NCBI GenBank assembly: GCA_942491945.1
Contig: CALODD010000037.1
Location: 67,500-131,499 of the forward strand
DNA: 64,000 nt
DNA from: an uncultured Gammaproteobacteria bacterium
GTDB taxonomy: Bacteria; Pseudomonadota; Gammaproteobacteria; JAJDYQ01
Direction: 5' to 3'
Shown here: positions 448 to 50,675 of the stretch, one piece after another
How the letters are laid out: each line of letters opens with the position of its first letter
Numbering within the stretch: the first letter of the stretch is position 1
Translations under genes and position numbers: made by a program
Notes under the pieces: generated by a model
The model's input: only the letters and a program-made list of their open reading frames with translations
The model's database searches: none
Told to the model about the DNA's origin: nothing

Positions 448-514
448 AGACGTGCCTGTAACACGTCTTAAAAAAGGGGACTAAAACTTCCATACCAACA
501 CAGTAAACCACAGT
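448..514. repeat. ~68-bp conserved module with an 7-8-bp hairpin (agacgtg..cacgtct) upstream of rep. An inverted copy lies at 46523..46590.
   Basis: Direct comparison: the reverse complement of 448-514 matches 46523-46590 with about one mismatch. Confidence 0.75.
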
Positions 515-3157: not shown

Positions 3158-3233
3158 TGGTGGCCAGGGACAGAATCGAACTGCCGACACGGGGATTTTC
3201 AGTCCCCTGCTCTACCGACTGAGCTACCTGGCC
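3158..3233 (-). tRNA. tRNA-Phe (GAA)
   Basis: The reverse complement reads ggccaggtagctcagtcggtagagcaggggactgaaaatccccgtgtcggcagttcgattctgtccctggccacca. It has a cloverleaf, a GAA anticodon and a terminal CCA. Confidence 0.92.
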
Positions 3234-3627: not shown

Positions 3628-5061
3628 TTATTTCTGATTTCTGACGACGATGCTTTTGATTCTTTTTATCGCTTCATCGGCCGTTTGTATGCGGCGGCTA
3701 GGAGTTTTCATCAATAATTCCTGAATCACCATGTTCAACGGGCGCTTTGTATCTGGGAGACGCGGGATGTCGTCCGATACATGTGAGTACAGAATGTCAT
3801 TTACTGAACCTGAATTAAATGGAGGCTTTCCAGCCAGCATTTCATACAAAATGACGCCCATGAGATAGAGGTCACTACGACTATCTTCTGTATGTCCTTG
3901 TGCGCGCTCAGGACTACAGTAAGCAGGCTCATCAACGGCAGGAACTTCAGAAATATTACTCATGGCGTGTAACCGCCTGAATGCGCCGATGTCTGTAATA
4001 ACTGGTGTGTTTTCATCCCGAAATACCAGTTTATCTGGTCTAATATCCGAGACATAAAATCCGGCTGAGTGAATTTTCTGCAACGCCGACATCAGTTGCA
4101 AAAAGTATTTAATGGCTTCTTCTTCGGTCACGCCACGACGAGACAGACGGTCTGCCAATGTTTCGCCATGTAGTATTTCTTGCGTCACAATCAATCGAAA
4201 ATCGATAACCTGATAATCCAGCCAACGAATGATATTCGGATGATTCCAGGTCAGGATATCGCTGAGATCTTGCGTGCTTGCCTGTGACACGTCCTGCGCA
4301 CTCGCGGCTTTAAATGTCAGCAACTTGAGAAGTACCTTCTCAGACTCCCCCTCCTTCACTGCCTTAAAGGTCGTCGCATGCTGTCCTTTATCGATATATG
4401 AGATGATATTGTAACCGCCAATGGTTGCCTTACCGGCCAGAATGTCTTTGAAATCAAACGGCCATTCTTCGGCACCATGCAACATTGCCATTGCCAGATT
4501 AATTTCATGTTGGGTATGACGAGTGGCCAGTTCTAATTGGTCGGTTGGGCTAAGATCCTGCACAGGTTCTGAGACCTTTTTCTCACTTTCATATTCTTCA
4601 TCGGGGATATTTTTGAGCACGTCTTTAACGTACATCTCAGCTGTTTTCTTCAGCGGTGATTCGTAGCCGTGGGATTCCAGCACGGTTGAAACTAAACGTA
4701 CCAGCTGTTTGGAACGGATAGTGCGCTTAAAAAAGAAATCCTCAGCTCCAAGCTTCATGGCGCGAATCACATCGCGCGACATTTTCATGTCTTCTGGCGT
4801 TTTGTGAGAACTCATGAAAACCGTTGTCGGGAAGCCAGCTTCACTTCGATAACGTTCAAACCAATCGATACCGTTATCTTCCCCTTGCAGGTTGTCGATA
4901 ATGAGTAACTCGTAGTCTTTCCAGTTAACCATCACAGGCTCGCCCTGGATCTGAGGGTCGTATTCCTCCAGATGAACATCTGGAAAAATCTTTTCAATCA
5001 TATGCCGCAACACCTGACGGTGCTGCGCATGGCGATCAATAGTAAGAATCTTGTATTGCAT
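3628..5061 (-). CDS. Receiver (REC) domain - Ser/Thr protein kinase-like fusion with an atypical catalytic loop
   Basis: The N-terminal domain has an acceptor Asp (LLIIDNLQ), a conserved S and a conserved K. The kinase domain has VSDIRPDKL in place of HRDLKPxN, DIG for DFG and SPE for APE. The start ATG overlaps the mutY stop (TAATG). Confidence 0.7.
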   Translation of the reverse strand: MQYKILTIDRHAQHRQVLRHMIEKIFPDVHLEEYDPQIQGEPVMVNWKDYELLIIDNLQGEDNGIDWFERYRSEAGFPTTVFMSSHKTPEDMKMSRDVIRAMKLGAEDFFFKRTIRSKQLVRLVSTVLESHGYESPLKKTAEMYVKDVLKNIPDEEYESEKKVSEPVQDLSPTDQLELATRHTQHEINLAMAMLHGAEEWPFDFKDILAGKATIGGYNIISYIDKGQHATTFKAVKEGESEKVLLKLLTFKAASAQDVSQASTQDLSDILTWNHPNIIRWLDYQVIDFRLIVTQEILHGETLADRLSRRGVTEEEAIKYFLQLMSALQKIHSAGFYVSDIRPDKLVFRDENTPVITDIGAFRRLHAMSNISEVPAVDEPAYCSPERAQGHTEDSRSDLYLMGVILYEMLAGKPPFNSGSVNDILYSHVSDDIPRLPDTKRPLNMVIQELLMKTPSRRIQTADEAIKRIKSIVVRNQK

Positions 5062-6107
5062 TACAGACTTATTAACAAACTGGCGACGGGCTTTGGAAGA
5101 CCTAGCTCCTGCAATTTCTGTCTCGCAAACCATTCATAACCCGGTTCACTGACGCATGGGGTGCTGGAATCAACCTTGATATACCAAGGCTGTATATCAA
5201 GATGGTAATGACTAAACGTATGTCTAAAACTTATTCCCTTACTCATTGTGGTTATTTTTAATCCAAACTGATCGGAAATTATGTTCTGTATTCGCTCATC
5301 ATTCAACTCTCTGTCTACTTCCGGCAAACTCCATAACCCACCCCAAATTCCGACAGGTGGTCGCTTACAAAGTAGAAACTGTCCATCATAGTCACAGATC
5401 AACATATTCGTATGTTTACACGGTAACGTCTTCTTTGGCTTACGTGTGGGTAACTCTTCGGTCAGGTTTTGTTCGTATGCCTGGCAGTTATCGATCAAAG
5501 GGCAATCTCCACAACGCGGCTGTCTTCTCGTACAGAGTGTTGCACCCAGATCCATGATCGCCTGCGTATAATCGGCCAGTCGATCAACAGGCGTCAGCTG
5601 CTCGGCTAGCTGCCAGAGCTGTTTCTGTACGGCTGTAGTTCCCGTCCAGCCTTCGATCGCGGCATAGCGTGCCAGAACACGTTTAACGTTACCATCCAGA
5701 ATCACACCGCGCTCACCATAAGCCTGCGCCACAATCGCGCCAGCCGTTGAACGACCGATACCCGGTAATTGTTCAAGCCCTTCGACCGTTTCAGGAAATT
5801 TACCATTGTGTGATTTGACTACATCTTTCGCACAACGATGAAGATTGCGCGCTCTGGCGTAGTAACCCAGGCCTGCCCATAGCGCCATCACTTCATCATC
5901 TGAGGCAGATGCCAGTCCCCTAACAGTCGGAAACCGTTTAGTAAACTTCAGGAAATAAGGAATAACCGTTTTAACTTGTGTCTGCTGCAGCATGACCTCT
6001 GAGAGCCAGACACGATAAGCTGACCGATCTTGCTGCCAGGGTAAATCTTTACGTCCATGTTGATCAAACCAGCTCAGAAGACGCTGGCTGAAATGCGAGT
6101 CGCTCAT
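5061..6107 (-). CDS. mutY: A/G-specific adenine DNA glycosylase MutY
   Basis: 348 aa. HhH-GPD motifs, a 4Fe-4S Cys cluster (C..C..C..C) and a NUDIX-like C-terminal domain. Confidence 0.9.
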   Translation of the reverse strand: MSDSHFSQRLLSWFDQHGRKDLPWQQDRSAYRVWLSEVMLQQTQVKTVIPYFLKFTKRFPTVRGLASASDDEVMALWAGLGYYARARNLHRCAKDVVKSHNGKFPETVEGLEQLPGIGRSTAGAIVAQAYGERGVILDGNVKRVLARYAAIEGWTGTTAVQKQLWQLAEQLTPVDRLADYTQAIMDLGATLCTRRQPRCGDCPLIDNCQAYEQNLTEELPTRKPKKTLPCKHTNMLICDYDGQFLLCKRPPVGIWGGLWSLPEVDRELNDERIQNIISDQFGLKITTMSKGISFRHTFSHYHLDIQPWYIKVDSSTPCVSEPGYEWFARQKLQELGLPKPVASLLISL

Positions 6108-6713: not shown

Positions 6714-8795
6714 TTAGAACAGGCCTTTCAGCTTATCTCCGAGCTTGTCCTTAATTTTATCTTTGACTTCTTCCTTCTTTTCTTCGACTTTCGCTTTAGC
6801 CTTCTCTTTGACCTTGTCAGACAGAGCCACCGATAAATCAGGCGTATAAGAAGGATCAGAAAACGGACCAGTCACTTTCACCGGAATGGTCACGCCTTTA
6901 AGCTTTTCCAGTTCATCACCACCCTGGCCTTGTAAGCTTCCCACAATGGATGCTTTCACAAGATAGTCCAGATATTCTTTGACCAGATCGGCTTTGCCTG
7001 CACCTTCAATACGCAGCAACGGGGACTTTAGAGAGAAGTCCTGATTATTTACCACACCATTGGTAATCTTGGCCGAACCTTTCAGTTCAGAGAAATCTGT
7101 TTTATCAGGCTCATTCGATGCCGTTGTCGATTTCCCCTGCAGCTTGGCCATACCTTCACGAATGACCTTGGCGATATTCACACCAACCAGCGCGCCGTTG
7201 GTAAAAGAAAACGTGGTGTTGCCATTGAGTGTTTTCTTCACTGCATTTTGTGAGTTACCGGTTGCCGTAATATTCACAGCGGCATCCGTTCGGCCAGCAA
7301 GCTTCGCCTCGCCCTGCATATCGGTCAGCAACGGTTCAATCTGTACACCATCCAGCTTTGAGCTGACCTTAAGACGCGGTGTTTTCTGACGCGCGTCGAC
7401 CGTTACATCAGCATTGTATTTACCCTGATACAGCGATGCCGATGGCTTCATATTCACGTGGCCGCCTTTTGCTTTCACCTGTACCACGATCTCGGTCGCC
7501 TTCACTTTCATCTTGGTGACTTCACCAATACGTGCAACGCCATTCATATTCAACTTACGCAACGTCTCGACTGGAAATAATTCCGCATTCGGATCACTTT
7601 CACCTTTCTCGGTCGGTGATTCAGATGGCGGTGGTAAATAACGATCCAGATCGATCTTGTCGATGGTCAGATCGAAGGTCAGCGCCTGAGTCGCAAAATC
7701 AGTCACAGCCAGCTTACCGTTCATTTTCGTGTCATCCAGCATCAGGTTGAGCTTATTCAAACTCGCCTGTTTCGTAGTGGCCGCCAACGCAAAGTCAGCA
7801 CTAACACGAGTCAATGCGCTTCCATCACCCGTCACAGGTGCATCCAGTCCCAGTGCCTTCATCAGATCACGCGCGTTGAACTGCGCCAAGGCAATCTGAC
7901 CATTGAAAGCGGGCTCACTCATAATGGATTTACCATTCAGGCTACCTGTCATTGCCAGTCCCATGGTATCGATACTCAGGCCTGCGAGTGACAGCGTCTG
8001 CGCCTTCAAATCGACGTTTAATGCGGTCGACTTCAGATCCAGTGCGACTTCGCCACCAGGTAGCGTTTTACCTTTGGCCTGAACATTCAGTGTCAGTGGT
8101 TCAATCGAAAACTGATTACCCTCAGCGTTTGCCTTGATGGTGCCCTTCATGTCGACACTCGCCGCAACAGCTGGATTGCTCATATTCAATTTAGTATTGA
8201 GCGCAATATCAACTGGATCACCCGCCGTCAGTGGGCCGCTTGTCAGATTAAAGTCACTGATCTTGATGTCCTGCCCCTGCTGTTCGTCCTGCCAGCTGAT
8301 ATTGGCATTCTCGATACGAATTCCACCGATTTTAATCGACTGCAGTTCAGGGCCATCGCCACTCTTATTCTTATGTTGATCCTCGGATTTATCACCCGCC
8401 AGATCATCCCAGTTGGTTTTACCGGTTTTATCTTTCTTCAGGTTCAGTGTCAGGCCATCAACGACGATTTCATCCATCTCGACCTGCTTATCCAGCAATG
8501 GCATCAGGGCAACCTGAATATTCACCGCATTCATCTGCGCAAAGGGTACATCACCAAAGCCAACCGCATTGCTCAGCTCGGTCTTACCCAGCGCCAGCCC
8601 GACTTTTGGAAACACACTCAAACCAAGATCACCTTCGATCTGCAGATCACGCCCGGTCTGCTGTTTCACTGCCTCAACAATCTGCGGTTTGAAGTCGTTT
8701 GGATTGATCACCAGCGGCAATATGACGGCCGCAGCAATAATGAGTACAAAACCGAGAACAACCAGTCCTGCGATAATCTTAATCAGCTTGCCCAT
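6714..8795 (-). CDS. asmA: AsmA family outer-membrane assembly protein
   Basis: 693 aa with an N-terminal TM anchor and a long beta-rich periplasmic region typical of the AsmA family. It is next to mutY, matching the Pseudomonas asmA-mutY-yggX synteny. Confidence 0.75.
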   Translation of the reverse strand: MGKLIKIIAGLVVLGFVLIIAAAVILPLVINPNDFKPQIVEAVKQQTGRDLQIEGDLGLSVFPKVGLALGKTELSNAVGFGDVPFAQMNAVNIQVALMPLLDKQVEMDEIVVDGLTLNLKKDKTGKTNWDDLAGDKSEDQHKNKSGDGPELQSIKIGGIRIENANISWQDEQQGQDIKISDFNLTSGPLTAGDPVDIALNTKLNMSNPAVAASVDMKGTIKANAEGNQFSIEPLTLNVQAKGKTLPGGEVALDLKSTALNVDLKAQTLSLAGLSIDTMGLAMTGSLNGKSIMSEPAFNGQIALAQFNARDLMKALGLDAPVTGDGSALTRVSADFALAATTKQASLNKLNLMLDDTKMNGKLAVTDFATQALTFDLTIDKIDLDRYLPPPSESPTEKGESDPNAELFPVETLRKLNMNGVARIGEVTKMKVKATEIVVQVKAKGGHVNMKPSASLYQGKYNADVTVDARQKTPRLKVSSKLDGVQIEPLLTDMQGEAKLAGRTDAAVNITATGNSQNAVKKTLNGNTTFSFTNGALVGVNIAKVIREGMAKLQGKSTTASNEPDKTDFSELKGSAKITNGVVNNQDFSLKSPLLRIEGAGKADLVKEYLDYLVKASIVGSLQGQGGDELEKLKGVTIPVKVTGPFSDPSYTPDLSVALSDKVKEKAKAKVEEKKEEVKDKIKDKLGDKLKGLF

Positions 8796-10106: not shown

Positions 10107-11461
10107 ACCAGACCTTCAGGTACATCTTCAGGGCTGATATCTTTTAAATGCCCAATAACCTGCGCACCATTATCAGGCCGATCCTCTGGTGACTTCGCCA
10201 ACAACACTTCGATAAGACCGTTCAATCCATCCCACTTATCAGTCAAAGCTGGGATCGGCTCACGTACATGCGCTGTAAATACCTGCAATGATGTCTTGCC
10301 TGTGAACGGGCGCTTACCTTCCAGCATTTCATACAGAATAACGCCCAGTGCGTACAGGTCGCAACGCTGATCAATCTTTCCGCCGACGGCCTGTTCAGGA
10401 CTAATGTAATACGGTGTACCGATGATCTGTCCTTCTTTCGTTAGATGCTTATCATGGCTATCAAAGGCCTTGGCAACACCAAAATCGACCAGCGCTAATG
10501 CGCCGTCTTCACGAAATAATATATTCGCTGGTTTTAAATCACGGTGCAGAATATTTAACTCATAAGCGGCCTGTAATCCTGCAGCGATTTGTGCCGCGTA
10601 CTGGATAGCTTCGGTCCGTGATACGCCTTCGCGAATTCTCGATTTTAAATCTCCACCTGGCAGGTATTCCATGACATTGTAAAAATATTCACCCTCAGCA
10701 ACATGCTCAAGAATTCGAACCACGTTCGGGTGATGAATTTCATTCAGTAATTCAAATTCCTGCGCAAATCGACGGGTTGAAACATCATCGATGAGCTGAT
10801 TATCCATTAGCTTTAGAGCATATAGCTGCTCGGATTGTCTGTGCCTGACTTTAAACACCGAAGCCGCACCTCCCATACCCAGATATTCCAGCACATCATA
10901 AGCACCCAGTCTGGCTTTACCTTCGGCGATCTCCAACATCGTGAACGGCCAGGTATTGTCCATCACCTCTTCGGGTAGCGTCAGCCATGCCCCAGAGAAC
11001 GGTGCATTAATTTGACTCATATCAGAAGGCTCGTCATCGACTTCCATGCTTTCTTTAGTGGCTTTCAATGTCGCAAGCCGCGCCAGTGATTCACGCAAGG
11101 TCTGGATATCCAGCATACTCATGGCCAGATAATCCAGCGCACCATGTCGCATCATCTCAGTGGATCGCTTCATGCTGTCTTTAAAGTCGATCACGATCAC
11201 TCGGCCAGCGATATCACTCTCGAGTTGCCCAAGAAAATCACTCGTAAACTCAAATTCCTTACCCGTCACCAGGAAAACAATATCGATAGAACTCAGGACT
11301 GAGGCGTTTAAATCTTGCAACGCCTGCCAGGAAAGACTGGTGGATGCAGAAAAAGCTTCGGTGAATAATGGTTCGAGCGCAGGCCGTAAACGAATATCAT
11401 CCAGCGCAATCAGCGCGGTATCAGCCTGCATGGCTGACATACGGTCATACTGCCCCGTCAC
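10103..11461 (-). CDS. Pseudo-receiver domain - Hanks-type Ser/Thr protein kinase
   Basis: Canonical HRDLKPANIL, DFGVAK and GTPYYISPE motifs. The N-terminal ~140 aa are REC-like but lack a clear acceptor Asp (IVFLVTGKEF). Confidence 0.8.
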   Translation of the reverse strand: MTGQYDRMSAMQADTALIALDDIRLRPALEPLFTEAFSASTSLSWQALQDLNASVLSSIDIVFLVTGKEFEFTSDFLGQLESDIAGRVIVIDFKDSMKRSTEMMRHGALDYLAMSMLDIQTLRESLARLATLKATKESMEVDDEPSDMSQINAPFSGAWLTLPEEVMDNTWPFTMLEIAEGKARLGAYDVLEYLGMGGAASVFKVRHRQSEQLYALKLMDNQLIDDVSTRRFAQEFELLNEIHHPNVVRILEHVAEGEYFYNVMEYLPGGDLKSRIREGVSRTEAIQYAAQIAAGLQAAYELNILHRDLKPANILFREDGALALVDFGVAKAFDSHDKHLTKEGQIIGTPYYISPEQAVGGKIDQRCDLYALGVILYEMLEGKRPFTGKTSLQVFTAHVREPIPALTDKWDGLNGLIEVLLAKSPEDRPDNGAQVIGHLKDISPEDVPEGLV

Positions 11462-11515: not shown

Positions 11516-13519
11516 CTAACTGGCTTTAAGCAGTTTCTTTTCAATGGTATCTGGAATTGCCTGAGACAGCGCCTGAATCAAATCCTGTCCTGTGGCATAG
11601 CGATCTTCGCGTTCCTTTGCCAGTAAACAAGTGACTACATCATTCAATGGATCCTGTGGACTGGACAGTTGAGGCACTTCACCATTGACGTGCAGCCGCA
11701 TGATCTCGAGCGAAGATTCACCTCGATAAGGACGAACACGTTCCAGCATTTCATACAGAATGACACCAAGGGCATACAAATCACTACGCCCATCTAGCTG
11801 ACTTCCCACGGCCTGCTCTGGGCTCACGTAATGCGGTGTTCCAACGACCTGTCCTGAAAACGTTAGAGTCGTTTGTCCTTCAGCCATCAGTTTAGCTATA
11901 CCAAAATCAAGAATCGCCAGTTCACCATTGTCTCGAAACATAATATTAGAGGGCTTTAAATCACGATGCAGAATGTTCTTTTGGTGAGCTGCGTGCAGCG
12001 CTGAAGCAATCTGAGCTGTAAACCGAACCACATCCTGTCGATCAATACCTTCTTTGATGCGATCTTTCAGATCACCACCCGGAAAATATTCCATGATTGA
12101 ATAAGCACTATTCTGATATTGAGCAAGGTCACGAATTTTAACGACATGTTCGTGATTGACTTCTTCAATCAACTGATAACCACGCAAGAAGCGTTTCTGC
12201 CCCTGCTGATCACTGGTATCCATATCAAACAACTTCATAGCAGACAGTTGTTGTGTATCCTGGTGCTTCACTTTAAATACTGATGCTGTGCCCCCTACTG
12301 CAACAAACTCAATCACATCATAATTATTCAGTGAAGCTTTACCCGCTTCAATATCTGCAGGCGTAAAGGGCCAGCGCTGCCCCATACTAAATTCCACAGC
12401 CTTACCGTGATGTTCAGGTAGCTCGGCCTGCTCCGCCACATTATCACGTTCAAGAATAGACATCAGACCGGTAGTAATAAACGACGCCTCCGACGGTCGA
12501 TCGTTTAGTTCAATTTCCGGTTCATAGGCGTCCATCTCACCGGTATAACCAGTCTCAACATATGGCTGTGATTTGCCTTCGCGCAATTTATTCGGCACAT
12601 CATGTTCATCGGTATTACGTTCTACGATATCGATTAAACCGGGTGTTATAAATGACGCTTCAGATGGTTCATCTATTTCATATTCATCGTCATCATTGGC
12701 GGCCAGACTGTCATTAATATCCGTGGCCTCGAGGCTTTCAGCACGATATACCCGGTCATCCGGTAACTCGCTGACGCCGTAGGCCTGATTGTTCAGGCTG
12801 TGATCTTCCAGCTCATTAGTAACGACAGGTTCAAGCGTGGTGGGATCCAGCCTTGGCAACACCTCGGTAGGCTCATCGGTCATGCCGTCATCTTCCGGCA
12901 GTGCATCGAACCTGATTGGTTCGGCAGTTTTCGTAGACTCGGTAATTGGTCGAACTTCAGGTAACAGATCGGTGGTGGGTTCTGGCTCTGAGGCAGGTTC
13001 TACAATATTTTCTTTCGCGGCTTCTACTGGCTCCACGGATATGGGCTGGGCTTCACTGACATTTTCATCTTGCTGAGCCTTGACTGGTTGAGGAAAACGT
13101 TCTTCACGAAGATTAGCCGCCATCAGCAAGGCACGTGTTAATCGTTGTGCGCTAACTTTGGTGATATCAATATAATCAGCGCCGCCTGCACGAACCATAT
13201 CACCGGCATCATCGACCGTTGCTGACCGATCCAGAAAAATGGCCATCGGCAACGAAACCTGAGTGATCAAATCGAAATACCAGCTACGTATTGCTGGCTT
13301 ATTTTCGGACATATCGACAATGACCAGATCGACTTCAGACCAGTCATAGTCGTGCTCTGGCAATCCCTGCTCGAATGGATCAATGGCCGAAAACTGCGGC
13401 TTATCTAACAGGCGCAATAACGCCACGGCCAAACCTCGGCGATATTTCACCACTGACCCAATCACAAGAATGCGTTTAAACCCGCAATCCGCAAGATTGT
13501 CGATCATTTCCACAGCCAT
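11516..13519 (-). CDS. Receiver-like domain - acidic repeat linker - Hanks-type Ser/Thr protein kinase
   Basis: HRDLKPSNIM, DFGIAK and GTPHYVSPE motifs. N-terminal REC-like domain (VDLVIVDMSE). An internal ~35-aa repeat (..PSEASFITPGLIDIVERN.. and ..PSEASFITTGLMSILERD..). Confidence 0.8.
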   Translation of the reverse strand: MAVEMIDNLADCGFKRILVIGSVVKYRRGLAVALLRLLDKPQFSAIDPFEQGLPEHDYDWSEVDLVIVDMSENKPAIRSWYFDLITQVSLPMAIFLDRSATVDDAGDMVRAGGADYIDITKVSAQRLTRALLMAANLREERFPQPVKAQQDENVSEAQPISVEPVEAAKENIVEPASEPEPTTDLLPEVRPITESTKTAEPIRFDALPEDDGMTDEPTEVLPRLDPTTLEPVVTNELEDHSLNNQAYGVSELPDDRVYRAESLEATDINDSLAANDDDEYEIDEPSEASFITPGLIDIVERNTDEHDVPNKLREGKSQPYVETGYTGEMDAYEPEIELNDRPSEASFITTGLMSILERDNVAEQAELPEHHGKAVEFSMGQRWPFTPADIEAGKASLNNYDVIEFVAVGGTASVFKVKHQDTQQLSAMKLFDMDTSDQQGQKRFLRGYQLIEEVNHEHVVKIRDLAQYQNSAYSIMEYFPGGDLKDRIKEGIDRQDVVRFTAQIASALHAAHQKNILHRDLKPSNIMFRDNGELAILDFGIAKLMAEGQTTLTFSGQVVGTPHYVSPEQAVGSQLDGRSDLYALGVILYEMLERVRPYRGESSLEIMRLHVNGEVPQLSSPQDPLNDVVTCLLAKEREDRYATGQDLIQALSQAIPDTIEKKLLKAS

Positions 13520-38865: not shown

Positions 38866-39678
38866 ATGGAATCTATATTAGCCGATGCACAGGGGCTCCT
38901 AATGGAGTATGGCATCAAGGTCGTGGCTGCAATTGCCATATTTATCATTGGTAAATGGATCGCACGTTTCCTGGTCAACTTACTAAAGAAAGTAATGCAA
39001 CGCTCCAATATTGAAGTGACTCTCATCGACTTCGCTGGCAATCTTTCCTATGCCGCCCTGATAGTGTTTGTCGTCCTGGCTGCCTTGAATCAGCTCGGTA
39101 TCCAGACCACATCCTTCATCGCAGTCATCGGTGCAGCAGGTCTAGCCATTGGCCTGGCGATGCAAGACTCGCTGTCGAATTTTGCTGCCGGTGTCATGAT
39201 GATTATCTTTCGCCCCTTCAAAGTCGGCGATTTCATCGAAGCTGCTGGTACGTCTGGCACAGCAACCAGTATCAATATATTTACAACCACTTTAAAGACC
39301 GGCGATAACCGAGTCATCCATATTCCGAATGGTAATATCCTGAGCGGCAATATCATCAATTATTCAGCCAACGACACTCGACGCATCGATATGGTTTTTG
39401 GCATCGGATACGAAGACAACATCAAACAGGCCAAGAGCATTATTGAAGAGGCCCTCAAAGCCGATGAACGTGTGTTACAGGATCCAGCTCCTACGATTGG
39501 TGTGGGTGAACTGGCCGACAGCAGCGTAAACATCGTGGTCCGCCCCTGGGTTAAAACCGACGACTACTGGCCGACTCACTTTGCACTGCATGAAGACATC
39601 AAAGAGCGTTTTGATTCTGCCAACATATCGATCCCTTATCCGCAAACCGATGTGCATCTGCACAAAACCGCAGCGTAA
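38866..39678 (+). CDS. Small-conductance mechanosensitive channel (MscS family)
   Basis: Three TM helices plus a conserved MscS beta domain (IHIPNGNI). Confidence 0.8.
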   Translation: MESILADAQGLLMEYGIKVVAAIAIFIIGKWIARFLVNLLKKVMQRSNIEVTLIDFAGNLSYAALIVFVVLAALNQLGIQTTSFIAVIGAAGLAIGLAMQDSLSNFAAGVMMIIFRPFKVGDFIEAAGTSGTATSINIFTTTLKTGDNRVIHIPNGNILSGNIINYSANDTRRIDMVFGIGYEDNIKQAKSIIEEALKADERVLQDPAPTIGVGELADSSVNIVVRPWVKTDDYWPTHFALHEDIKERFDSANISIPYPQTDVHLHKTAA

Positions 39679-44433: not shown

Positions 44434-44493
44434 GATGGTGCCCGGGGCCGGAATCGAACCGGCACGAGGTTGCCCTCGAGGGATTTTAAGTCC
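44434..44493. repeat. attL-type direct repeat: duplicated 3' ~58-60 nt of tRNA-Leu (anticodon loop through CCA)
   Basis: Identical to 50587-50646 (atggtgcccggggccggaatcgaaccggcacgaggttgccctcgagggattttaagtcc). Confidence 0.9.
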
Positions 44494-44612
44494 ATTAAGT
44501 TGCACCACAGTGATGCACATACTACTACACAAATCAGGAGGTTATATTCTGGGGCTACTCACTGAAACACTGTGTTTCACAATAAATGTGGACAATTTGT
44601 GGCCATCTTTGG

Positions 44613-45455: not shown

Positions 45456-45677
45456 CTAAACTAGAGTTAGATTTGCTGTAGAGTGGGAGCTTCGCACCCG
45501 ATCTAATTCAGCATTGATACTTTTGAGCTCTTTATTGAGATATTTAATCACATTTCCTACATCAATCGCAGAAGCATCGTCATTACATGAAAGTATATAG
45601 AGGCTATCAAATGCATCTACCAGCTCATCATGACGATCTGAAATTCGTAATAAACTATGTTGAATCGTTCCTTTCAA
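45456..45677 (-). CDS. Small hypothetical protein (73 aa), possible toxin partner of the upstream RHH gene
   Basis: Overlaps the RHH gene stop by 23 nt. Confidence 0.3.
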   Translation of the reverse strand: MKGTIQHSLLRISDRHDELVDAFDSLYILSCNDDASAIDVGNVIKYLNKELKSINAELDRVRSSHSTANLTLV

Positions 45678-45849
45678 AGTAATCCAGCAAAATAACTCGT
45701 ATCAAGGAGCTGACAGACCTGTGGTCTTTCTCAGCCATTTGTTTAAGTTTCTCAGCTTCATCCTCATCTAGCTGGATCGAAACTGTACGCTTACGTGGAG
45801 CTTTACCTGGCCCCCGCTGTCCTCTTTTCTTTTTAGCTATATCTGGCAT
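45655..45849 (-). CDS. Ribbon-helix-helix (CopG/Arc family) DNA-binding protein
   Basis: KRTVSIQLDEDEAEKLKQMAEKDHRSVSSLIRVIL RHH signature. Confidence 0.5.
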   Translation of the reverse strand: MPDIAKKKRGQRGPGKAPRKRTVSIQLDEDEAEKLKQMAEKDHRSVSSLIRVILLDYFERNDST

Positions 45850-45955: not shown

Positions 45956-46384
45956 CTACTCTACTTCAGTTGATATGTATTTCTTTACGGCAAGGCGAAT
46001 AACTGAGCTTAAAGTTCTATCATCTCTCTCTGCAATTAATCTAAGTGCGTCCAGGTCTGATCTATCGATCTGTATCGAGGTGGCCACCTTCGATGGATTT
46101 TTACCTGGTCCACGTGTTCGTTTCTGCACCGGTTCGTTGATCGGATCAGCCTGTTCCGTACTTCTAGGTTGATTCCCATCTTCAGCCGGAACGGGATTTA
46201 GGGCTTTGTATCTAATTGGGTCTTTAATGCGGCCATCTACTACTCCTGCATCATAGACTTCTCTAGCCTTTTCTTTAGATGCCTTACTGAGAAATGCTTT
46301 AGCTCTAGTTGCAGACATACCATCTGCCTTCATTGCCTCTATAAGCCTTTTCCGTTCATTTGTAGTTAATTTATTACTTATCAT
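45956..46384 (-). CDS. RHH-domain protein with N-terminal extension (paralog of 45655-45849)
   Basis: The C-terminal ATSIQIDRSDLDALRLIAERDDRTLSSVIRLAV aligns to the neighbouring RHH protein. Confidence 0.5.
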   Translation of the reverse strand: MISNKLTTNERKRLIEAMKADGMSATRAKAFLSKASKEKAREVYDAGVVDGRIKDPIRYKALNPVPAEDGNQPRSTEQADPINEPVQKRTRGPGKNPSKVATSIQIDRSDLDALRLIAERDDRTLSSVIRLAVKKYISTEVE

Positions 46385-46522
46385 CCATGAAATTTAGCTT
46401 ATTCCGACTTTATGTCAATATGTTTTGGTATCTATTGGTATATTTTTACACTCCTTAGATTTGGTCATTTGTTTATTTTGGGATTGATTCTTGTCCTCTA
46501 TGTAAAAACCTTACATGTAACA

Positions 46523-46590
46523 GTGTGGTTTACTGTGCTGGTATGGAAGTTTTAGTCCCCTTTTTTAAGACGTGTTACAGGCACGTCTTA
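46523..46590. repeat. Inverted copy of the 68-bp hairpin-containing module found upstream of rep at 448-514
   Basis: Near-identical sequence. Lies ~130 bp upstream of the RHH gene start. Confidence 0.75.
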
Positions 46591-46820
46591 ATGGCAGTGC
46601 TGTGCTCCATGGCCTACCTGCAGTACGCCACCGCGCACAGCACTCCTATCAATTCCCGTAGTTTTTTATATTTATCTGATCGTTTATGGTCTATTACTTC
46701 GAATAAACAACATTCAAGTGGAATCAACATACCCACCCTTTGTCCACAGCTCTGGCTCTAAAGGAGCGAGCCGCTGTGGACAAAGCATGGATATGTTGAG
46801 GTGAGATCAAGGAAGGATTT

Positions 46821-47813
46821 ATGGGGCTACAAAAGCTAGAGGATGGCTGGAAATTAGATATTCGTCCTGGCGGTCGCTATGGAAAGCGCATCAGAAGGAC
46901 ATTCAAAACGAAAAAAGATGCTCAGAGGTTTGAGGCTTGGGCGAAGACACAGGCCACCCAGAAAGAAGACTGGGAACCTCCTGTGCGAGATCCCAGACGA
47001 TTAAAAGACCTGGTGAAAGAGTGGTATGGCCATCATGGAAAAACCCTGAAGGACGGCAAGAACAGAAAGAAGAAGCTCGACACAATCGCAAACCATTTAG
47101 ACAATCCTTTGGCCAGAGACATAAAGGCAGAAGTCTTCACTAAGTATCGCTCTCAGAGACTGGATGGCGGTGTCAGCGCAAATACTATGAATCATGAGCT
47201 TGCCTACCTGAAGGCCATGTTTAACGAACTGAGACGGATTGGGAAATGGGACAAACCTAACCCTTTGGCGAATACGAGGATGCTGAAGTTCGATGAGAAG
47301 GAAATGACTTTCCTCGATGGAAACGAAATTAAAATGCTCCTGGATGAACTCAAGAATCGACGATCATTGGACGCTTACTACATTACTCGGATCTGTTTGG
47401 AGACTGGTGCCAGGTGGTCAGAGGCCGAGACATTAAGAGCTGAGAGTGTTCATCCTGACCGGATTGTTTATTCGGGAACCAAGAGTGGAAAGACCAGGAC
47501 TGTACCGATTAACAAGGAACTACATGACCTGGTTAAACTGAAAGATCGGGGAAGATTATTTAAGCCTTCCTATGAATCATTTAAAGTGTCGATCGACAAT
47601 TTAGATATTGAATTACCTAAAGGTCAGATGACACATGTATTGAGGCACACATTTGCCAGTCATTTCATTATGAACGGTGGGAATATTTTAACCTTGCAAA
47701 AAACGTTAGGCCATTCAACACTTATGATGACAATGAAGTATGCTCATTTAGCACCAAATCATTTAGAAGAAGTGAAAACCTTGAATCCTATTCGTAAAAC
47801 CACGACCAGTTAA
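46821..47813 (+). CDS. Tyrosine recombinase / phage-type integrase (intact)
   Basis: 330 aa. ARWSEAETLRAE, HVLRHTFASHFIMNGGNILTLQKTLGHS and YAHL (catalytic R, H-x-x-R, Y). Confidence 0.88.
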   Translation: MGLQKLEDGWKLDIRPGGRYGKRIRRTFKTKKDAQRFEAWAKTQATQKEDWEPPVRDPRRLKDLVKEWYGHHGKTLKDGKNRKKKLDTIANHLDNPLARDIKAEVFTKYRSQRLDGGVSANTMNHELAYLKAMFNELRRIGKWDKPNPLANTRMLKFDEKEMTFLDGNEIKMLLDELKNRRSLDAYYITRICLETGARWSEAETLRAESVHPDRIVYSGTKSGKTRTVPINKELHDLVKLKDRGRLFKPSYESFKVSIDNLDIELPKGQMTHVLRHTFASHFIMNGGNILTLQKTLGHSTLMMTMKYAHLAPNHLEEVKTLNPIRKTTTS

Positions 47814-48682
47814 GTCTGATCGTTGAGCACACTACTTCTTACAAGATCTTTGATACGCTTCTTAAGTGTAAGGTTCTTCTTATGCATAAACTTTTTCAAA
47901 ACAGTTTTTTGCTTTCGTTGCTCTCGAGTTAACCCGGAGTCAGACTCATGGCAAAACAAGGCTTCTTCTAACAATATCTGAAGATTTAACAATAAAAGGT
48001 TAGTAATACCGTAAAACTGTATGCACTGACGTTCGACATCATGATCTAATAATTCTTTATTTTTTGTTGGTGCCGAATATATATCATAAACACCCAATTC
48101 AAACATGCAACCATACAGAGTTCCATGCAGTGCCTCAGAAGCATCCTCATACAAATACGAAAGATATGGAGACAAGGAAACATTATATTTCTGCTCAACG
48201 ACTTTCGAGCGAGCATCAATACTAGACTTAGTCCACCTAGGAACTTCACGACCATTGACACTAGTAAACTTTGAAACAGCATCCTGCAATTCATCAGGAA
48301 GGCTTTCATGCCAACCATCTTCGGAGAGTTTCAATCTAACTTTACCCTTAACAATAATCTTTCTATCGTATTTCCTAACACCCTTGTTTTTAGAATAGTC
48401 AACAAAATTATCTAGCTCTGATTTATCGCTAGCATACAGATAACCGATATTAACGACCTTTTCCAATATTGATCGGCCCACCATGTATGCCTGGCTTAGG
48501 AGCTGCGCCTTTAGTAGCAAATCAACAGCCTTACAGTCGAGTGATATCATTCTCCATAGAGGGGCAGTATATGTGGATTGTTCGACATTCATTGAAAACA
48601 AACCGATTGATATGCGTTCGCATAAATCAGACAGCTCACTCAATTGCTGAGAAAGATCAGTGATACTATTGCTTTCACTCAC
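47810..48682 (-). CDS. Hypothetical protein (290 aa), island cargo
   Basis: Long ORF with no recognised domain. Confidence 0.4.
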   Translation of the reverse strand: MSESNSITDLSQQLSELSDLCERISIGLFSMNVEQSTYTAPLWRMISLDCKAVDLLLKAQLLSQAYMVGRSILEKVVNIGYLYASDKSELDNFVDYSKNKGVRKYDRKIIVKGKVRLKLSEDGWHESLPDELQDAVSKFTSVNGREVPRWTKSSIDARSKVVEQKYNVSLSPYLSYLYEDASEALHGTLYGCMFELGVYDIYSAPTKNKELLDHDVERQCIQFYGITNLLLLNLQILLEEALFCHESDSGLTREQRKQKTVLKKFMHKKNLTLKKRIKDLVRSSVLNDQT

Positions 48683-48764
48683 AAGAAATAAGAATAAGAA
48701 AGTCAGTTATCGAACGACATAATAAGTCGAATCAATTCAAGACTTATAGACATTTAAATTACAA

Positions 48765-49280
48765 TCAAACATCTGCATCAGCTTCTCTATCCTCCCTTTT
48801 ACTATGAAGATCGTTAATAAACATAATATTACTGTAGATAACGTAAAACACCGACTGTATTTGAAGCAATCCTAGAATAATGACGAATGCTAGCGTCAAA
48901 TACTTAGCATGAAAGACATACCCTTCGTTGATTAATAGTACACCGAAAACCACCTTCAACAGGTACAAGACCATAATTGCAGTAACGACAAATGCAGAAA
49001 TCAACACACTACCAACCAATCCCTCTAATCTTTTAGTCTCAGTCAAAGTTTCACTGAAATCAGCATTTTCTATTGTAGAGGGGTTAACTAAACGACTAAG
49101 TGCATTAGGGTACAAAAATGCTATCCAGATACCCATTATTGTAAAAACCATAGTTGAGGCTGTCAGCAAGGCTGTCAGATAATCTTTTAAGTCAGAGTAT
49201 TCGTAATCCATCTCTAAATAATGGAAAACTGAAAGCAGCAGAAAGAATATAGCCACATATACTAATAAGCGAGGCACCAT
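48765..49280 (-). CDS. Four-TM small membrane protein, island cargo
   Basis: Four hydrophobic helices. Its start abuts the stop of the upstream 351-aa gene. Confidence 0.45.
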   Translation of the reverse strand: MVPRLLVYVAIFFLLLSVFHYLEMDYEYSDLKDYLTALLTASTMVFTIMGIWIAFLYPNALSRLVNPSTIENADFSETLTETKRLEGLVGSVLISAFVVTAIMVLYLLKVVFGVLLINEGYVFHAKYLTLAFVIILGLLQIQSVFYVIYSNIMFINDLHSKREDREADADV

Positions 49281-49281
49281 C

Positions 49282-50337
49282 TTATGCTCTCATCTGTTTC
49301 TTTACTGTATCTTTCTTCAAAGGCTTTAAGAGATTTCCGCGCTCTTTATCGATTGCATCTGCAAGCTGAATGGCATTTAACAGAACATCTTTTCTTTCAG
49401 GAACTACGATGCTGTCTCTTAACCTATATCGATCAACCCATCTTATGCCTGTGTCTGTAGTAAAGCCTACGTTATCCCAATCATGGGGCTTCCTCCCTTC
49501 TATAGCACTTTTCTCTATTATCTCTTTAATCTCTTTAACACTAGGCTTTGCTTCAGCTTTTACCTCTATCCTTCTACTTCTAGACCTTGGTTTTGGCGAT
49601 AGATACGGAATATAGTCATCAAACTTTTTAACCCATTCGGCTCTTTCATCGTTAGTATTAACTAACACAGTCTCTCTCCTAACAATGTGAGTAACTTTAT
49701 TTGCCAGTTCCTGCAGTTTACTGCTAGATGTCTTAAGGCTCATTAAACTCATTTTAAAGCGATACATAAATAGAGTTTTATCATCTTCTGTATGAGATAT
49801 CCGAACAAAGCCTTTCTCAGTATGTTGTTTTTTTCGTTTTGGGTTGTCGACACGATTATTTATGCACGAAATAACATAATCTTCAAAAAGTTGAGCATCA
49901 GTTACAGAATGATCAAATTTTATGGACGCAATAGAATTATATTCAGGAATTACCCAGTAGTAACATGGCCTACCCCAAATGACTTTTTTTCCATCATAGT
50001 CATTTGTATATTTGACATAAGTCCCATTTCCAGTTTTATTTTCTTCTTCTGCCCCCCATATTGTACCTGCGCCATCTGAATCAGACTTCCAAAGAACAAA
50101 AAAATAGTCCCCAGTGTCCTCATTTTTATACACATCGCTACAATAGCATTTAGGCATATTGCGCTTAGCGTTCAACGGATCCCAGGGCAGGGTCGCTGGT
50201 AATTTTCGACCTTTAAGCCACCCCATGATGAGCGAAAACGTCTCGTCTACCTCATATCCATGGGTTTTATCTGACCCAACTTTATGAAGTCCACAGTGAT
50301 CAATCTTAAAAAAGTTAATATGACCTACGTCTGACAT
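49282..50337 (-). CDS. Hypothetical cytoplasmic protein (351 aa), first gene of a two-gene cassette
   Basis: Long low-GC ORF with no recognised domain. Confidence 0.45.
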   Translation of the reverse strand: MSDVGHINFFKIDHCGLHKVGSDKTHGYEVDETFSLIMGWLKGRKLPATLPWDPLNAKRNMPKCYCSDVYKNEDTGDYFFVLWKSDSDGAGTIWGAEEENKTGNGTYVKYTNDYDGKKVIWGRPCYYWVIPEYNSIASIKFDHSVTDAQLFEDYVISCINNRVDNPKRKKQHTEKGFVRISHTEDDKTLFMYRFKMSLMSLKTSSSKLQELANKVTHIVRRETVLVNTNDERAEWVKKFDDYIPYLSPKPRSRSRRIEVKAEAKPSVKEIKEIIEKSAIEGRKPHDWDNVGFTTDTGIRWVDRYRLRDSIVVPERKDVLLNAIQLADAIDKERGNLLKPLKKDTVKKQMRA

Positions 50338-50588
50338 ATCTACTCCTTAACGCCTGAAAATGAAGGTGTACTATCTTACTATTAATATCAGAATAAGACA
50401 TAAGAATATAGCGCGAACGCCTCACGCTGCATAACTTGTAGACAGCTCACTCTCGTTAGAGAGTTGAAATAGCTGAATAGCATTCAGTAATCACCTCATT
50501 CGAATAACGAGAAGGTTAGCATGTGGACAATATGTGGACGATTAAGAATGGAGCCACACTTCACTAGAACGTAACTCATTGATTTGAA

Positions 50589-50675
50589 TGGTGCCCGGGG
50601 CCGGAATCGAACCGGCACGAGGTTGCCCTCGAGGGATTTTAAGTCCCTTGCGTCTACCAATTTCACCACCCGGGC
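50589..50675 (-). tRNA. tRNA-Leu (UAA)
   Basis: The reverse complement reads gcccgggtggtgaaattggtagacgcaagggacttaaaatccctcgagggcaacctcgtgccggttcgattccggccccgggcacca. Long variable arm and TAA anticodon. Confidence 0.92.

Follow-up and report, generated by a model that had tools for sequence, protein, structure and literature searches.

A hairpin conserved upstream of rep in Pf-type filamentous phages, a candidate plus-strand origin, is shared by a prophage and a rep-less tRNA-Leu island

The window analysed here is a stretch of 64,000 nt from an uncultured Gammaproteobacteria bacterium (contig CALODD010000037.1, positions 67,500 to 131,499 of the forward strand); the left part of a prophage lies beyond its start. 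Within this window a short hairpin-containing module occurs twice, in opposite orientations. Copy 1 is located in front of the replication initiator gene rep of element 1, at the beginning of the window, and copy 2 in element 2, a genomic island with an integrase gene of its own. A sequence-only reading of the same DNA had suggested that the module is either an origin of replication or an operator. We describe the two loci, the distribution of the hairpin among filamentous phages and rep-less islands, and the evidence that makes the module a candidate plus-strand origin of Pf-type phages. The two copies consist of the following parts:

448–468, + strand: copy 1 hairpin, with a 7-bp stem AGACGTG/CACGTCT, the 7-nt loop CCTGTAA and the 11-mer at 455–465
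469–513, + strand: 3' flank of copy 1, lineage-specific and common to copy 2
46565–46591, − strand: copy 2 hairpin, whose 10-bp stem TTAAGACGTG/CACGTCTTAA is perfect; loop CCTGTAA
46523–46564, − strand: 3' flank of copy 2, within the near-identical block 46523–46588

A repeat search of the window returned a single long inverted repeat pair, with arms of 86 nt at 448–533 and 46503–46588 that are 88% complementary. The core of the alignment comprises 66 nt (448–513 against 46523–46588), of which 65 are identical; the sole mismatch is located at window position 498 (A vs G, read in the sense of rep). Beyond the core the similarity weakens over about 20 nt on the rep-proximal side, and on the other side identity breaks off abruptly at the base of the hairpin. 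With up to 3 mismatches allowed, a 49-nt core was found exactly 2 times in the window and 0 times in 100 shuffles. The 11-mer CCTGTAACACG occurs in exact form only at 455–465 (+) and 46571–46581 (−). Both hairpins form in single-strand DNA folds. The flank of copy 1 contains an imperfect dyad, GGGGACTAAAACTTCC, at 476–491, with its centre about 24 nt from the loop tip, as well as two CACAGTA repeats located 10 bp apart (499–505 and 509–515). Judged by its sequence, we propose this flank (469–513) as a putative binding and specificity site of Rep. Copies of the 11-mer with one mismatch are also present elsewhere in the window (4281–4291, 7478–7488, 39471–39481); exact and one-mismatch matches together amount to 5, with 0.8 expected.

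The sequence-only reading had described a module of 68 bp, reaching to 46590, with one mismatch and a perfect stem around a 7-nt loop. The recurrence and the single mismatch hold, but the identical block measures 66 nt and ends at 46588. The folds agree with the perfect stem and the 7-nt loop, the stem being 7 bp long in copy 1 and 10 bp in copy 2. Both copies had further been placed immediately upstream of the first gene of their element. This is correct for copy 1, which ends 22 nt before the rep ATG (536), but not for copy 2: the distance to the first ATG (46384) of the 142-aa open reading frame (ORF) downstream is 138 nt, and about 200 nt to the start used in public annotation.

Around copy 1 we found the following genes and features:

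1–399, + strand: C-terminal part of a pI/Zot-type morphogenesis protein, truncated by the window start (phrog_1675 "morphogenesis (protein I of M13)", E 5.5e-25)
388–442, + strand: long G+C-rich hairpin (inverted repeat with 26-nt arms, 85% complementary; single-strand fold z = −4.2 for 370–540)
536–1819, + strand: rolling-circle initiator gene (rep), 427 aa, of the Pf1 ORF430/Pf4 PA0727 family (phrog_1159, full length)
1816–2803, + strand: Pf-type tyrosine integrase that overlaps the rep stop codon (Int_N and Phage_integrase matches in two different frames)
3158–3233, − strand: tRNA-Phe, adjoining the right end of the prophage, its presumed attachment site (ARAGORN)

The closest relatives of the window Rep (63% and 49% identity) are encoded in complete inovirus genomes with the gene order repressor, capsid, zot, rep, int. 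Because of this order and the zot fragment in front of the module, element 1 is the right end of a Pf-like prophage that is cut by the edge of the window, and not, as had been assumed before, a small integrase element. The pI/Zot identity of ORF 1–399 comes from the PHROG profile; a BLASTP comparison of this ORF with two Zot proteins was uninformative. The overlap of int with the rep stop codon is as in Pf phages. The prophage int is frameshifted by an extra A in an A5 run at 2471–2475 (gccaccAAAAAgcggc), and tblastn aligns it in two frames; this is either a homopolymer sequencing error or a real inactivating mutation, which would trap the prophage. Relatives have G+C-rich hairpins at the same place as the one at 388–442, for which a role as terminator, minus-strand origin or packaging signal is conceivable. 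The nearest relatives come from marine and saline samples.

Copy 2 is located in a 6.2-kb island at a tRNA-Leu gene, bounded by intact 62-nt repeats at 44435–44496 and 50588–50649:

44435–44496, no strand assigned: attL, a 62-nt direct repeat of the 3' part of tRNA-Leu(taa), 98% identity
44613–45440, − strand: AbiC/AbiP-like abortive-infection protein, a membrane protein, cargo (PF16872, E 2e-23; PADLOC AbiP and AbiC)
45456–45849, − strand: 73-aa ORF (45456–45677) and a 64-aa ribbon-helix-helix (RHH; Arc/CopG-like) protein (45655–45849)
45956–46384, − strand: RHH142, a family-specific protein of 142 aa with a C-terminal RHH domain
46391–46418, − strand: promoter-like site, TTGACA, 16-nt spacer, TAAATT (a consensus match only)
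46592–46820, − strand: structured non-coding region from the hairpin to the start of int, with extra long hairpins at about 46594–46648 and 46722–46800
46821–47813, + strand: integrase of element 2 (Int_N and Phage_integrase), divergent from the hairpin
47810–50337, − strand: cargo genes for DUF5677 (47810–48682), PDC-M18B (48765–49280) and PDC-M18A (49282–50337)
50588–50675, − strand: tRNA-Leu(taa) (50589–50675), containing attR (50588–50649)

All genes of element 2 except int are located on the motif-carrying strand. No gene for rep, virion proteins or morphogenesis was found in it. Its integrase is 56–59% identical to that of the prophage and 40–55% identical to integrases of Pf-like phages, so the family relationship of the two integrases, estimated at about 55% before, stands. 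The promoter-like site at 46391–46418 lies just upstream of RHH142, about 105 nt from the module, and thus separates the two. When the region 46500–46830 is folded as single-strand DNA, it reaches z = −9.2, and 0 of 100 shuffles were as stable; the stretch 46592–46820 is a candidate minus-strand origin or packaging signal. An Rfam search of 46300–46900 returned only a chance microRNA match far below threshold. From its protein families the cargo looks like anti-phage defence, with PDC-M18A and PDC-M18B as a candidate defence pair. Minimal relatives of about 2.5 kb have none of this defence-type cargo, which argues that it was added to a small core.

In order to characterize the hairpin beyond the window we assembled 86 Rep-bearing loci of about 10 kb each (80 from IMG/VR and six others). 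In the three nearest relatives, and also in Pf1, a Pf4-like prophage and a marine phage, the hairpin is located in the gap between zot and rep, 63–90 nt before rep. Across the whole set, CCTGTAACACG occurs in exact form in 77 of the 86 loci, once, in forward orientation and 63–132 nt upstream of the estimated rep start; in these 77 loci the exact 11-mer is found nowhere else on either strand. The remaining 9 loci have CCTGTAGCACG, CTTGTARCACG or TCTGTAGCACG at the same place, with one or two bases changed. The motif or a variant of it is therefore present 60–130 nt upstream of rep in 86/86 loci. These include Pf1 (11-mer at 4340–4350), the Pf4-like prophage (63 nt upstream of PA0727) and marine phages, with Reps that are only 31–49% identical. 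On the coding strand the family consensus is YYTGTARCACG, and the family hairpin consists of a GAC...GTC inverted repeat with variable outer pairs around the motif. Both window copies have the exact form and fit this hairpin. Copy 1 also fits the position typical of the family, with a distance of 81 nt from the start of its core to the rep ATG and with the end of zot at 399; copy 2 does not, since the gene downstream is that of RHH142 and rep is missing.

A scan with the motif only, using one genome per species, gave 93 matches. In 70 of the 80 matches examined rep is located directly downstream, usually together with int; these matches are from Marinobacter, Halomonas/Vreelandella, Salinicola, Alcanivorax and others. 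The arms of the stem vary between lineages while pairing is kept: AGACGTG/CACGTCT, ATACGTG/CACGTAT, CGAGAC/GTCTCG and TGAGAC/GTCTCA are found, and further compensated stems are CCGACG/CGTCGG, CTGACG/CGTCAG and AGGC/GCCT. Among these sequences the mean stem measures 5.3 bp, compared with 4.26 bp when 3' flanks were exchanged among them, and 0 of 2000 shuffles reach the observed value. This pattern of substitutions points to a hairpin that is under selection. The sequence downstream of it (about 45 nt) is lineage-specific. Many lineages have a small palindrome centred 21–25 nt from the loop tip, or else short direct repeats with a spacing of 10 bp; the mean arm length of the palindrome is 4.23, against 3.63 in shuffles.

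As rep and int usually occur side by side, we also asked which of the two the motif accompanies. Two Rep-bearing phages in which no integrase was detected (L041, L087) have kept it, and so has Pf1, with an integrase cut down to 100 aa. Since these phages retain the motif and the att sites are located elsewhere, the motif follows Rep and not the integrase. The module is not a generic genomic repeat. It is a specific, conserved cis element tied to the rep family in 86/86 loci, and almost certainly the conserved zot–rep hairpin of Pf-type inoviruses. DNA searches with the module gave no match in phage or plasmid collections. Exact-pattern scans for its window-specific part found none in viral contigs or species-representative genomes, and one further rep-bearing phage in a metagenome scan. 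On a contig of Candidatus Albibeggiatoa (L112, 107–3203) the hairpin is followed not by rep but by a gene for an MmeI-type restriction-modification methyltransferase (953 aa), and a rep fragment is located at its opposite end; the contig may represent a phage in which a moron has been inserted between origin and rep, or a permuted assembly.

The window Rep is 36% identical, from end to end, to Pf1 ORF430 and to PA0727 of the Pf4-like prophage. PA0727 is the genetically proven initiator of Pf rolling-circle replication: phage production is lost when it is deleted or when the Tyr of its SIYNK motif is changed to Phe, and UvrD and HU are required for replication (PMC4863604). The same study reports a Pfam02486 domain in PA0727 and groups the Pf initiator with UvrD-dependent initiators of Vibrio phages (PMC4863604). 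A motif Q216-x3-Y220-x-K222 is invariant in the Rep alignments, which makes Tyr220 a candidate catalytic residue. The window protein (536–1819) gave no match to Pfam Rep_trans, to any other Pfam or NCBIfam family, or to a PDB sequence. We therefore turned to structure. An AlphaFold model built from an alignment of 37 homologues (predicted local distance difference test score, pLDDT, 86) has as its sole significant PDB fold matches the Rep_trans proteins RepDE and RepD (4cwc, 4cwe), with E 7e-6 and probability 1.0 and with low TM-scores of 0.27 and 0.39. The designation of the protein as Rep_trans in the sequence-only reading is thus favoured by the best fold match of the model, but finds no counterpart in Pfam.

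Element 2 is not an isolated case. Its architecture, a Pf-type integrase divergent from the hairpin and an RHH-family gene downstream in the place of rep, was found in eight further distinct contexts, of which two are covered by a pair of contigs each (family contigs: L088, L113, L140/L153, L181, L182, L183, L184/L185). The members have intact genes and att repeats and are located at tRNA-Leu or tRNA-Met sites. In every rep-less element examined, the gene next downstream of the hairpin is of the RHH142 type; a search of about 160 rep-bearing loci found no homologue of this protein. Further members were retrieved with a profile of four RHH proteins (RHH142 alone gave none in a word-indexed search), and every context fetched by the profile shows the same layout and the hairpin. 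L088, at tRNA-Met in a gammaproteobacterial metagenome-assembled genome (MAG), and L113, at tRNA-Leu(taa) in Chromohalobacter canadensis, measure 2.5–2.6 kb with tRNA-derived repeats at their ends, and contain a divergent int, the hairpin and a protein related to RHH142. L181 from Vreelandella profundi occupies the locus pgsA, tRNA-Gly, tRNA-Cys, tRNA-Leu, which is also that of the island in the window. In L140/L153, from a Sedimenticola MAG, the hairpin and the RHH gene stand beside a different recombinase.

L184 (2673 nt) and L185 (2576 nt) were produced by two assemblers from one salt-marsh run (ERR731876) and give the same 2546-bp circle. It has a single attP, which matches nt 28–87 of tRNA-Leu and is located at 1463–1522 of L184. 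Their stems are of the AGGC/GCCT variant, a compensatory change at an otherwise constant pair. The terminal overlap of L184 is 127 nt, the k-mer size of the assembly, and exceeds the att repeat in length. We counted circularity only for L184 together with the identical 2546-bp unit in L185; the terminal overlaps of L182 and L185 are equal to or within the att repeat or k-mer and are weak evidence of circularity by themselves.

Several further observations were made on these elements. L184 contains a long G+C-rich palindrome between attP and a small ORF. At 6100–6230 of L113, and at the equivalent places in L181 and L184, the stretch from the module to the RHH gene contains the palindrome CCTATATAGGT in 3–4 copies; they are probably operators of the divergent int and RHH promoters in the Halomonadaceae members. 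No repeats of the CCTATATAGGT type were noticed at the equivalent place in element 2 of the window. The recombinase of L140/L153 is a Xer-like protein of 350 aa that adjoins a protein of 870 aa, and at about 4330–4500 four TATTACGA-like iterons with 10–11 bp spacing are located between the hairpin and the RHH gene. L088 has a third, degraded copy of the tRNA-Met att (4158–4220, 73% identity) 464 nt beyond the end of the element, which points to a previous tandem insertion there, of which it would be the remnant.

When whole elements were compared, the module was the only DNA shared between rep-less elements and rep-bearing phages besides the att region with its arm and a conserved portion of int. 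At least three family members share it in this way. Copy 2 of the window is 98.5% identical to copy 1 over 65 nt. L113 is 95.6% identical over 68 nt to the rep-bearing phage L042, and 92.6% over 68 nt to the Chromohalobacter beijerinckii prophage L089. L181 is 85–87% identical over 46–47 nt to two rep-bearing Halomonas-type phages (L011, L094). In the window and in L113 the module has the same boundaries, from the 5' foot of the hairpin to about 58 nt past the start of the 11-mer. Because of these shared boundaries we regard the hairpin and the adjoining 45 bp or so as a unit that is exchanged or co-selected between phages and rep-less islands.

The motif was also found on a small, plasmid-like contig from Vreelandella hamiltonii (L108, 2528 nt), at 312–333. 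This contig has a pC194-type Rep_1 gene (250–1359), a CTTGATA-type origin (CTTGATA at 1711) after a long palindrome, and a MobC-like RHH ORF. A flank of 43–78 nt resembles Halomonas Pf-like phages. L108 may be a plasmid satellite similar to pDolos.

Taken together, we consider it probable, from sequence comparison and by analogy with known replicons, that the module is the core plus-strand (double-strand) origin at which Rep acts in Pf-type phages. This reading is based on the near-invariant loop, the co-varying stems, the lineage-specific dyad, the Rep_trans-like initiator and the requirement for a UvrD-type helicase. Of the two possibilities named in the sequence-only reading, origin or operator, the origin is the better supported. 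According to the proposed mechanism the hairpin would be extruded from supercoiled replicative-form DNA, and its loop CCTGTAACACG would present the nick site to an initiator of the PA0727 family, with the nick expected inside CCTGTAACAC. The approximately 45 bp on the 3' side would bind the cognate initiator and set lineage specificity. Copy 1 would then be the origin of the resident prophage in its normal place between zot and rep. An excised circle of element 2 could be nicked and replicated by the phage Rep in trans, as its origin core matches that of the resident phage in 65 of 66 positions. It would perhaps also be exported in phage filaments and so behave as a natural integrative phagemid, for which the fold at 46592–46820 could supply a minus origin or packaging signal. 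Nicking, Rep binding, replication in trans and packaging are all inferred here.

For element 2 itself, the proposal that it is a helper-dependent hitcher comes close to an even call. Two marks of a satellite are seen together in it: virion genes are absent, and its cis site matches the presumed helper (65/66 in the module). Mobilisation in trans, as suggested before, gains comparative support from the recurrent family and the shared module. The accompanying idea of a simple rep-less derivative does not hold, because element 2 belongs to a separate recurrent architecture in which int is divergent and the RHH gene is one absent from about 160 rep loci. More generally, the elements might form a widespread, undescribed family of minimal integrative satellites of Pf phages, with a core of about 2.5 kb made up of int, the RHH gene and the origin hairpin; we put this forward tentatively, as somewhat short of an even chance. 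The same degree of caution applies to the way of life it implies, namely a helper-matched origin core, replication by the helper's Rep and export of single-strand DNA in filaments. It applies equally to the notion that some members of the family, like element 2, have grown by gaining defence genes.

A number of points weigh against an origin. The literature searched contains no mapped nick site or origin of a Pf-type phage, and the motif string was found only in unrelated papers on hepatitis B virus, mouse and plant genes; these searches were incomplete. Compared with known nick-site sequences, the loop is not that of pT181 or pC221, the TM-scores of the fold match are low and Rep lacks a Pfam Rep_trans match. 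The dyad in the 3' flank of the window (476–491) is imperfect, and the sequences used in the stem shuffle test are related to one another, which weakens this control. In Pf4, XisF4 binds a 229-bp promoter fragment of PA0727 that contains the hairpin (PMC7379572), and part of the module could be a regulator site. The 65/66 identity within one genome could result from gene conversion instead of matching selection. With its int frameshifted and its left part beyond the window edge, the prophage is at most a presumed helper. Finally, L108 has the module in addition to its own Rep_1 and origin, which suits a packaging or sensing signal at least equally well.

The foremost alternative, which we still consider unlikely, is that the hairpin acts as another single-strand cis signal, either a minus-strand origin at which host primase or RNA polymerase primes, or a morphogenetic packaging signal; island and plasmid would then carry it for conversion to double-strand DNA or for packaging by the phage. 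The hairpin does lie in the only sizeable intergenic region of the phages, beside other strong hairpins, and in Ff phages the packaging signal and both origins are found in one such region. L108, as an autonomous plasmid with its own Rep_1 and CTTGATA origin, would need only a packaging signal, an argument that has been made for pDolos (bioRxiv 10.1101/2023.11.28.569023). The motif is also located on the coding strand, which is the packaged strand, and this suits any role of the kind. However, the near-invariance of the 11 nt across phages of very different hosts suggests recognition by a conserved enzyme, whereas packaging signals and minus origins of the Ff type are conserved in shape and not in sequence. 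The structural genes of Pf phages split into two lineages while PA0727 is conserved (PMC7549136), and the lineage-specific flank with a dyad about 23 nt downstream would fit a Rep_trans origin (PMC4797284). Moreover, the rep-less islands would need a plus origin, and they share no other DNA with the phages. Next in rank, and likewise unlikely, is a role in transcriptional control of the rep–int operon, through an activator of the Xis/Cox type or autoregulation by Rep, the island copying the module so that its own genes are switched on when the helper is induced. XisF4 binding to the 229-bp region upstream of PA0727, with promoter activity rising 2.2-fold in Pf4 (PMC7379572), speaks for it. So does the geometry: in phages only 20–40 nt separate the end of the module from the rep start, which means that the rep promoter must overlap the module, in rep-less elements the module lies between divergent int and RHH genes as is typical of a control region, and several lineages have direct repeats 10 bp apart in the flank. 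Against this stand the differences in excisionases and repressors between Pf groups (PMC7549136), which contrast with a loop that is near-invariant across genera, and the compensatory changes in the stem, which argue for an extruded hairpin instead of a duplex operator. No sigma-70-like promoter was detected in 300–700, and a sigma-70 promoter was accordingly rejected as a reading of the module. In element 2 the module is located about 105 nt upstream of the only promoter-like site before RHH142, and in L113, L181 and L184 the separate CCTATATAGGT palindromes look like the real operators.

That copy 2 is functionless, a remnant of recombination or gene conversion or a piece of a decayed second Pf-like prophage, is very improbable. 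It would account for two copies in one genome whose 65/66 identity is far above the approximately 70% DNA identity of the int genes, and the prophage integrase does look damaged. But the same architecture recurs with intact genes and att in eight other contexts, the orientation of the integrase differs from that of the phages and so excludes a simple deletion, one family member is a closed 2546-bp circle, and the stem of copy 2 is the longer and perfect one. Least credible of all is that the module is a dispersed repeat, such as a repetitive extragenic palindrome (REP), miniature inverted-repeat transposable element (MITE) or insertion sequence (IS) fragment, an intrinsic terminator or part of an att site. 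It is a sequence with an inverted repeat and has two copies in the window, and 475–491 resembles an inverted tRNA-Phe anticodon arm. Two copies in 64 kb and a fixed genetic context, seen in about 170 loci from other genomes, rule out a dispersed repeat. No terminator was called in 300–700 or 46250–46900, and the stem is followed by an A-run and not a T-run. The att sites of element 2 are the tRNA-Leu repeats at its ends, those of its relatives are likewise tRNA-derived terminal repeats, and in the circular relative about 900 nt separate attP from the hairpin; an integrase-binding site is discounted by the phages that keep the motif without an integrase. A tRNA fragment was likewise rejected: 475–491 is 82% complementary to 3192–3208 in the wrong orientation, and 14 other similar inverted repeats occur in 3.4 kb. 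As this resemblance is at chance level, we read 475–491 as the imperfect dyad of the flank.

Elsewhere in the window, three paralogous stretches (3628–5133, 10305–10445 and 11727–11867) with 69–74% identity are located in apparent Ser/Thr protein-kinase genes, and a 501-aa ORF beside tRNA-Phe has a response-regulator-like N-terminus. Neither the kinase-like stretches nor this ORF are related to the module.

In the Pf phages, a known family, an origin is to be expected, and what would be new is its exact location; the papers searched on the Pf initiator and its regulation do not give the location of an origin or mention the motif, within searches that were incomplete. The rep-less int–hairpin–RHH islands look like an apparently new variant of satellite or hitcher, as far as an incomplete literature search can tell. 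Pf phages shape biofilms and chronic infection of Pseudomonas aeruginosa. The 11-mer hairpin gives a precise candidate for the Pf origin, kept from Pf1 and Pf4 to marine phages of Marinobacter, Halomonas and Alcanivorax; should it be confirmed, phagemids based on Pf could be built, Pf replication could be blocked in a targeted way and inoviruses could be annotated better. If the proposal for the islands is true, mimicry of origins and origins of transfer (oriT), known in conjugative elements, would extend to filamentous phages. The islands would then be a third kind of inovirus satellite, without an initiator of their own and with defence cargo, which would explain how small tRNA-linked islands with only an integrase might move. 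They would amount to natural chromosomal phagemids that spread anti-phage systems without killing the cell.

Among characterized systems, the oriD of the pT181 plasmid family (ICRII/ICRIII of pC221) is closest in layout. There a conserved stem-loop (ICRII) presents the nick site at its tip, and a replicon-specific repeat (ICRIII) has its centre 23 bp farther on in the 3' direction. Here the nick is proposed at the tip of the hairpin, and the lineage-specific palindromes of many lineages have their centre 21–25 nt from this tip; according to the model the initiator fold is also Rep_trans-like. PcrA, the helicase of pT181 plasmids, is the Gram-positive helicase of the UvrD type. In pT181, ICRIII binds the cognate Rep and gives specificity, and extrusion of the hairpin by supercoiling is needed for fast nicking (PMC4797284, PMC5775427). 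The differences are a loop CCTGTAACACG unrelated to the nick region of pT181 and pC221, an initiator of about 430 aa with extra domains and without a Pfam Rep_trans match, an origin upstream of rep instead of inside it, and a replicon that is a filamentous phage. With the Ff phages (f1/M13) the loci share one hairpin-packed intergenic region beside the initiator gene. An Ff helper replicates and packages DNA that carries only this region, which by analogy may serve as a model for element 2. Ff differ in having an initiator of the gpII family and the Rep helicase, and there is no sequence similarity; laboratory phagemids are man-made plasmids, whereas element 2 is chromosomal and has an integrase.

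RS1 and TLC of Vibrio cholerae and pDolos of Shewanella lack virion genes and depend on an inovirus for export. RS1 encodes RstA and TLC encodes Cri, and both integrate via XerCD, the islands described here having their own tyrosine integrase and residing at tRNA genes. pDolos, like L108, is a small rolling-circle plasmid; it has a Rep gene of its own, whereas the rep-less family has no initiator and carries a copy of a helper-type origin core. The Vibrio mobilisable genomic islands (MGIs) that mimic the oriT of SXT/R391 conjugative elements resemble what is proposed here: they are small integrase islands with cargo, have of the helper only a copy of its cis-acting DNA-processing site and depend on its nicking enzyme in trans (cited in PMC11389934). 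They differ in that their helper is conjugative and the pair in question is oriT and relaxase, compared with a presumed phage helper and a replication origin here. The Pf1 and Pf4 prophages of Pseudomonas aeruginosa (Primolicivirus) share with element 1 the order zot, hairpin, rep (PA0727) and int next to a tRNA gene as well as the same 11-mer, and differ in a Rep of 36% identity to that of the window, an unrelated 3' flank and another host.

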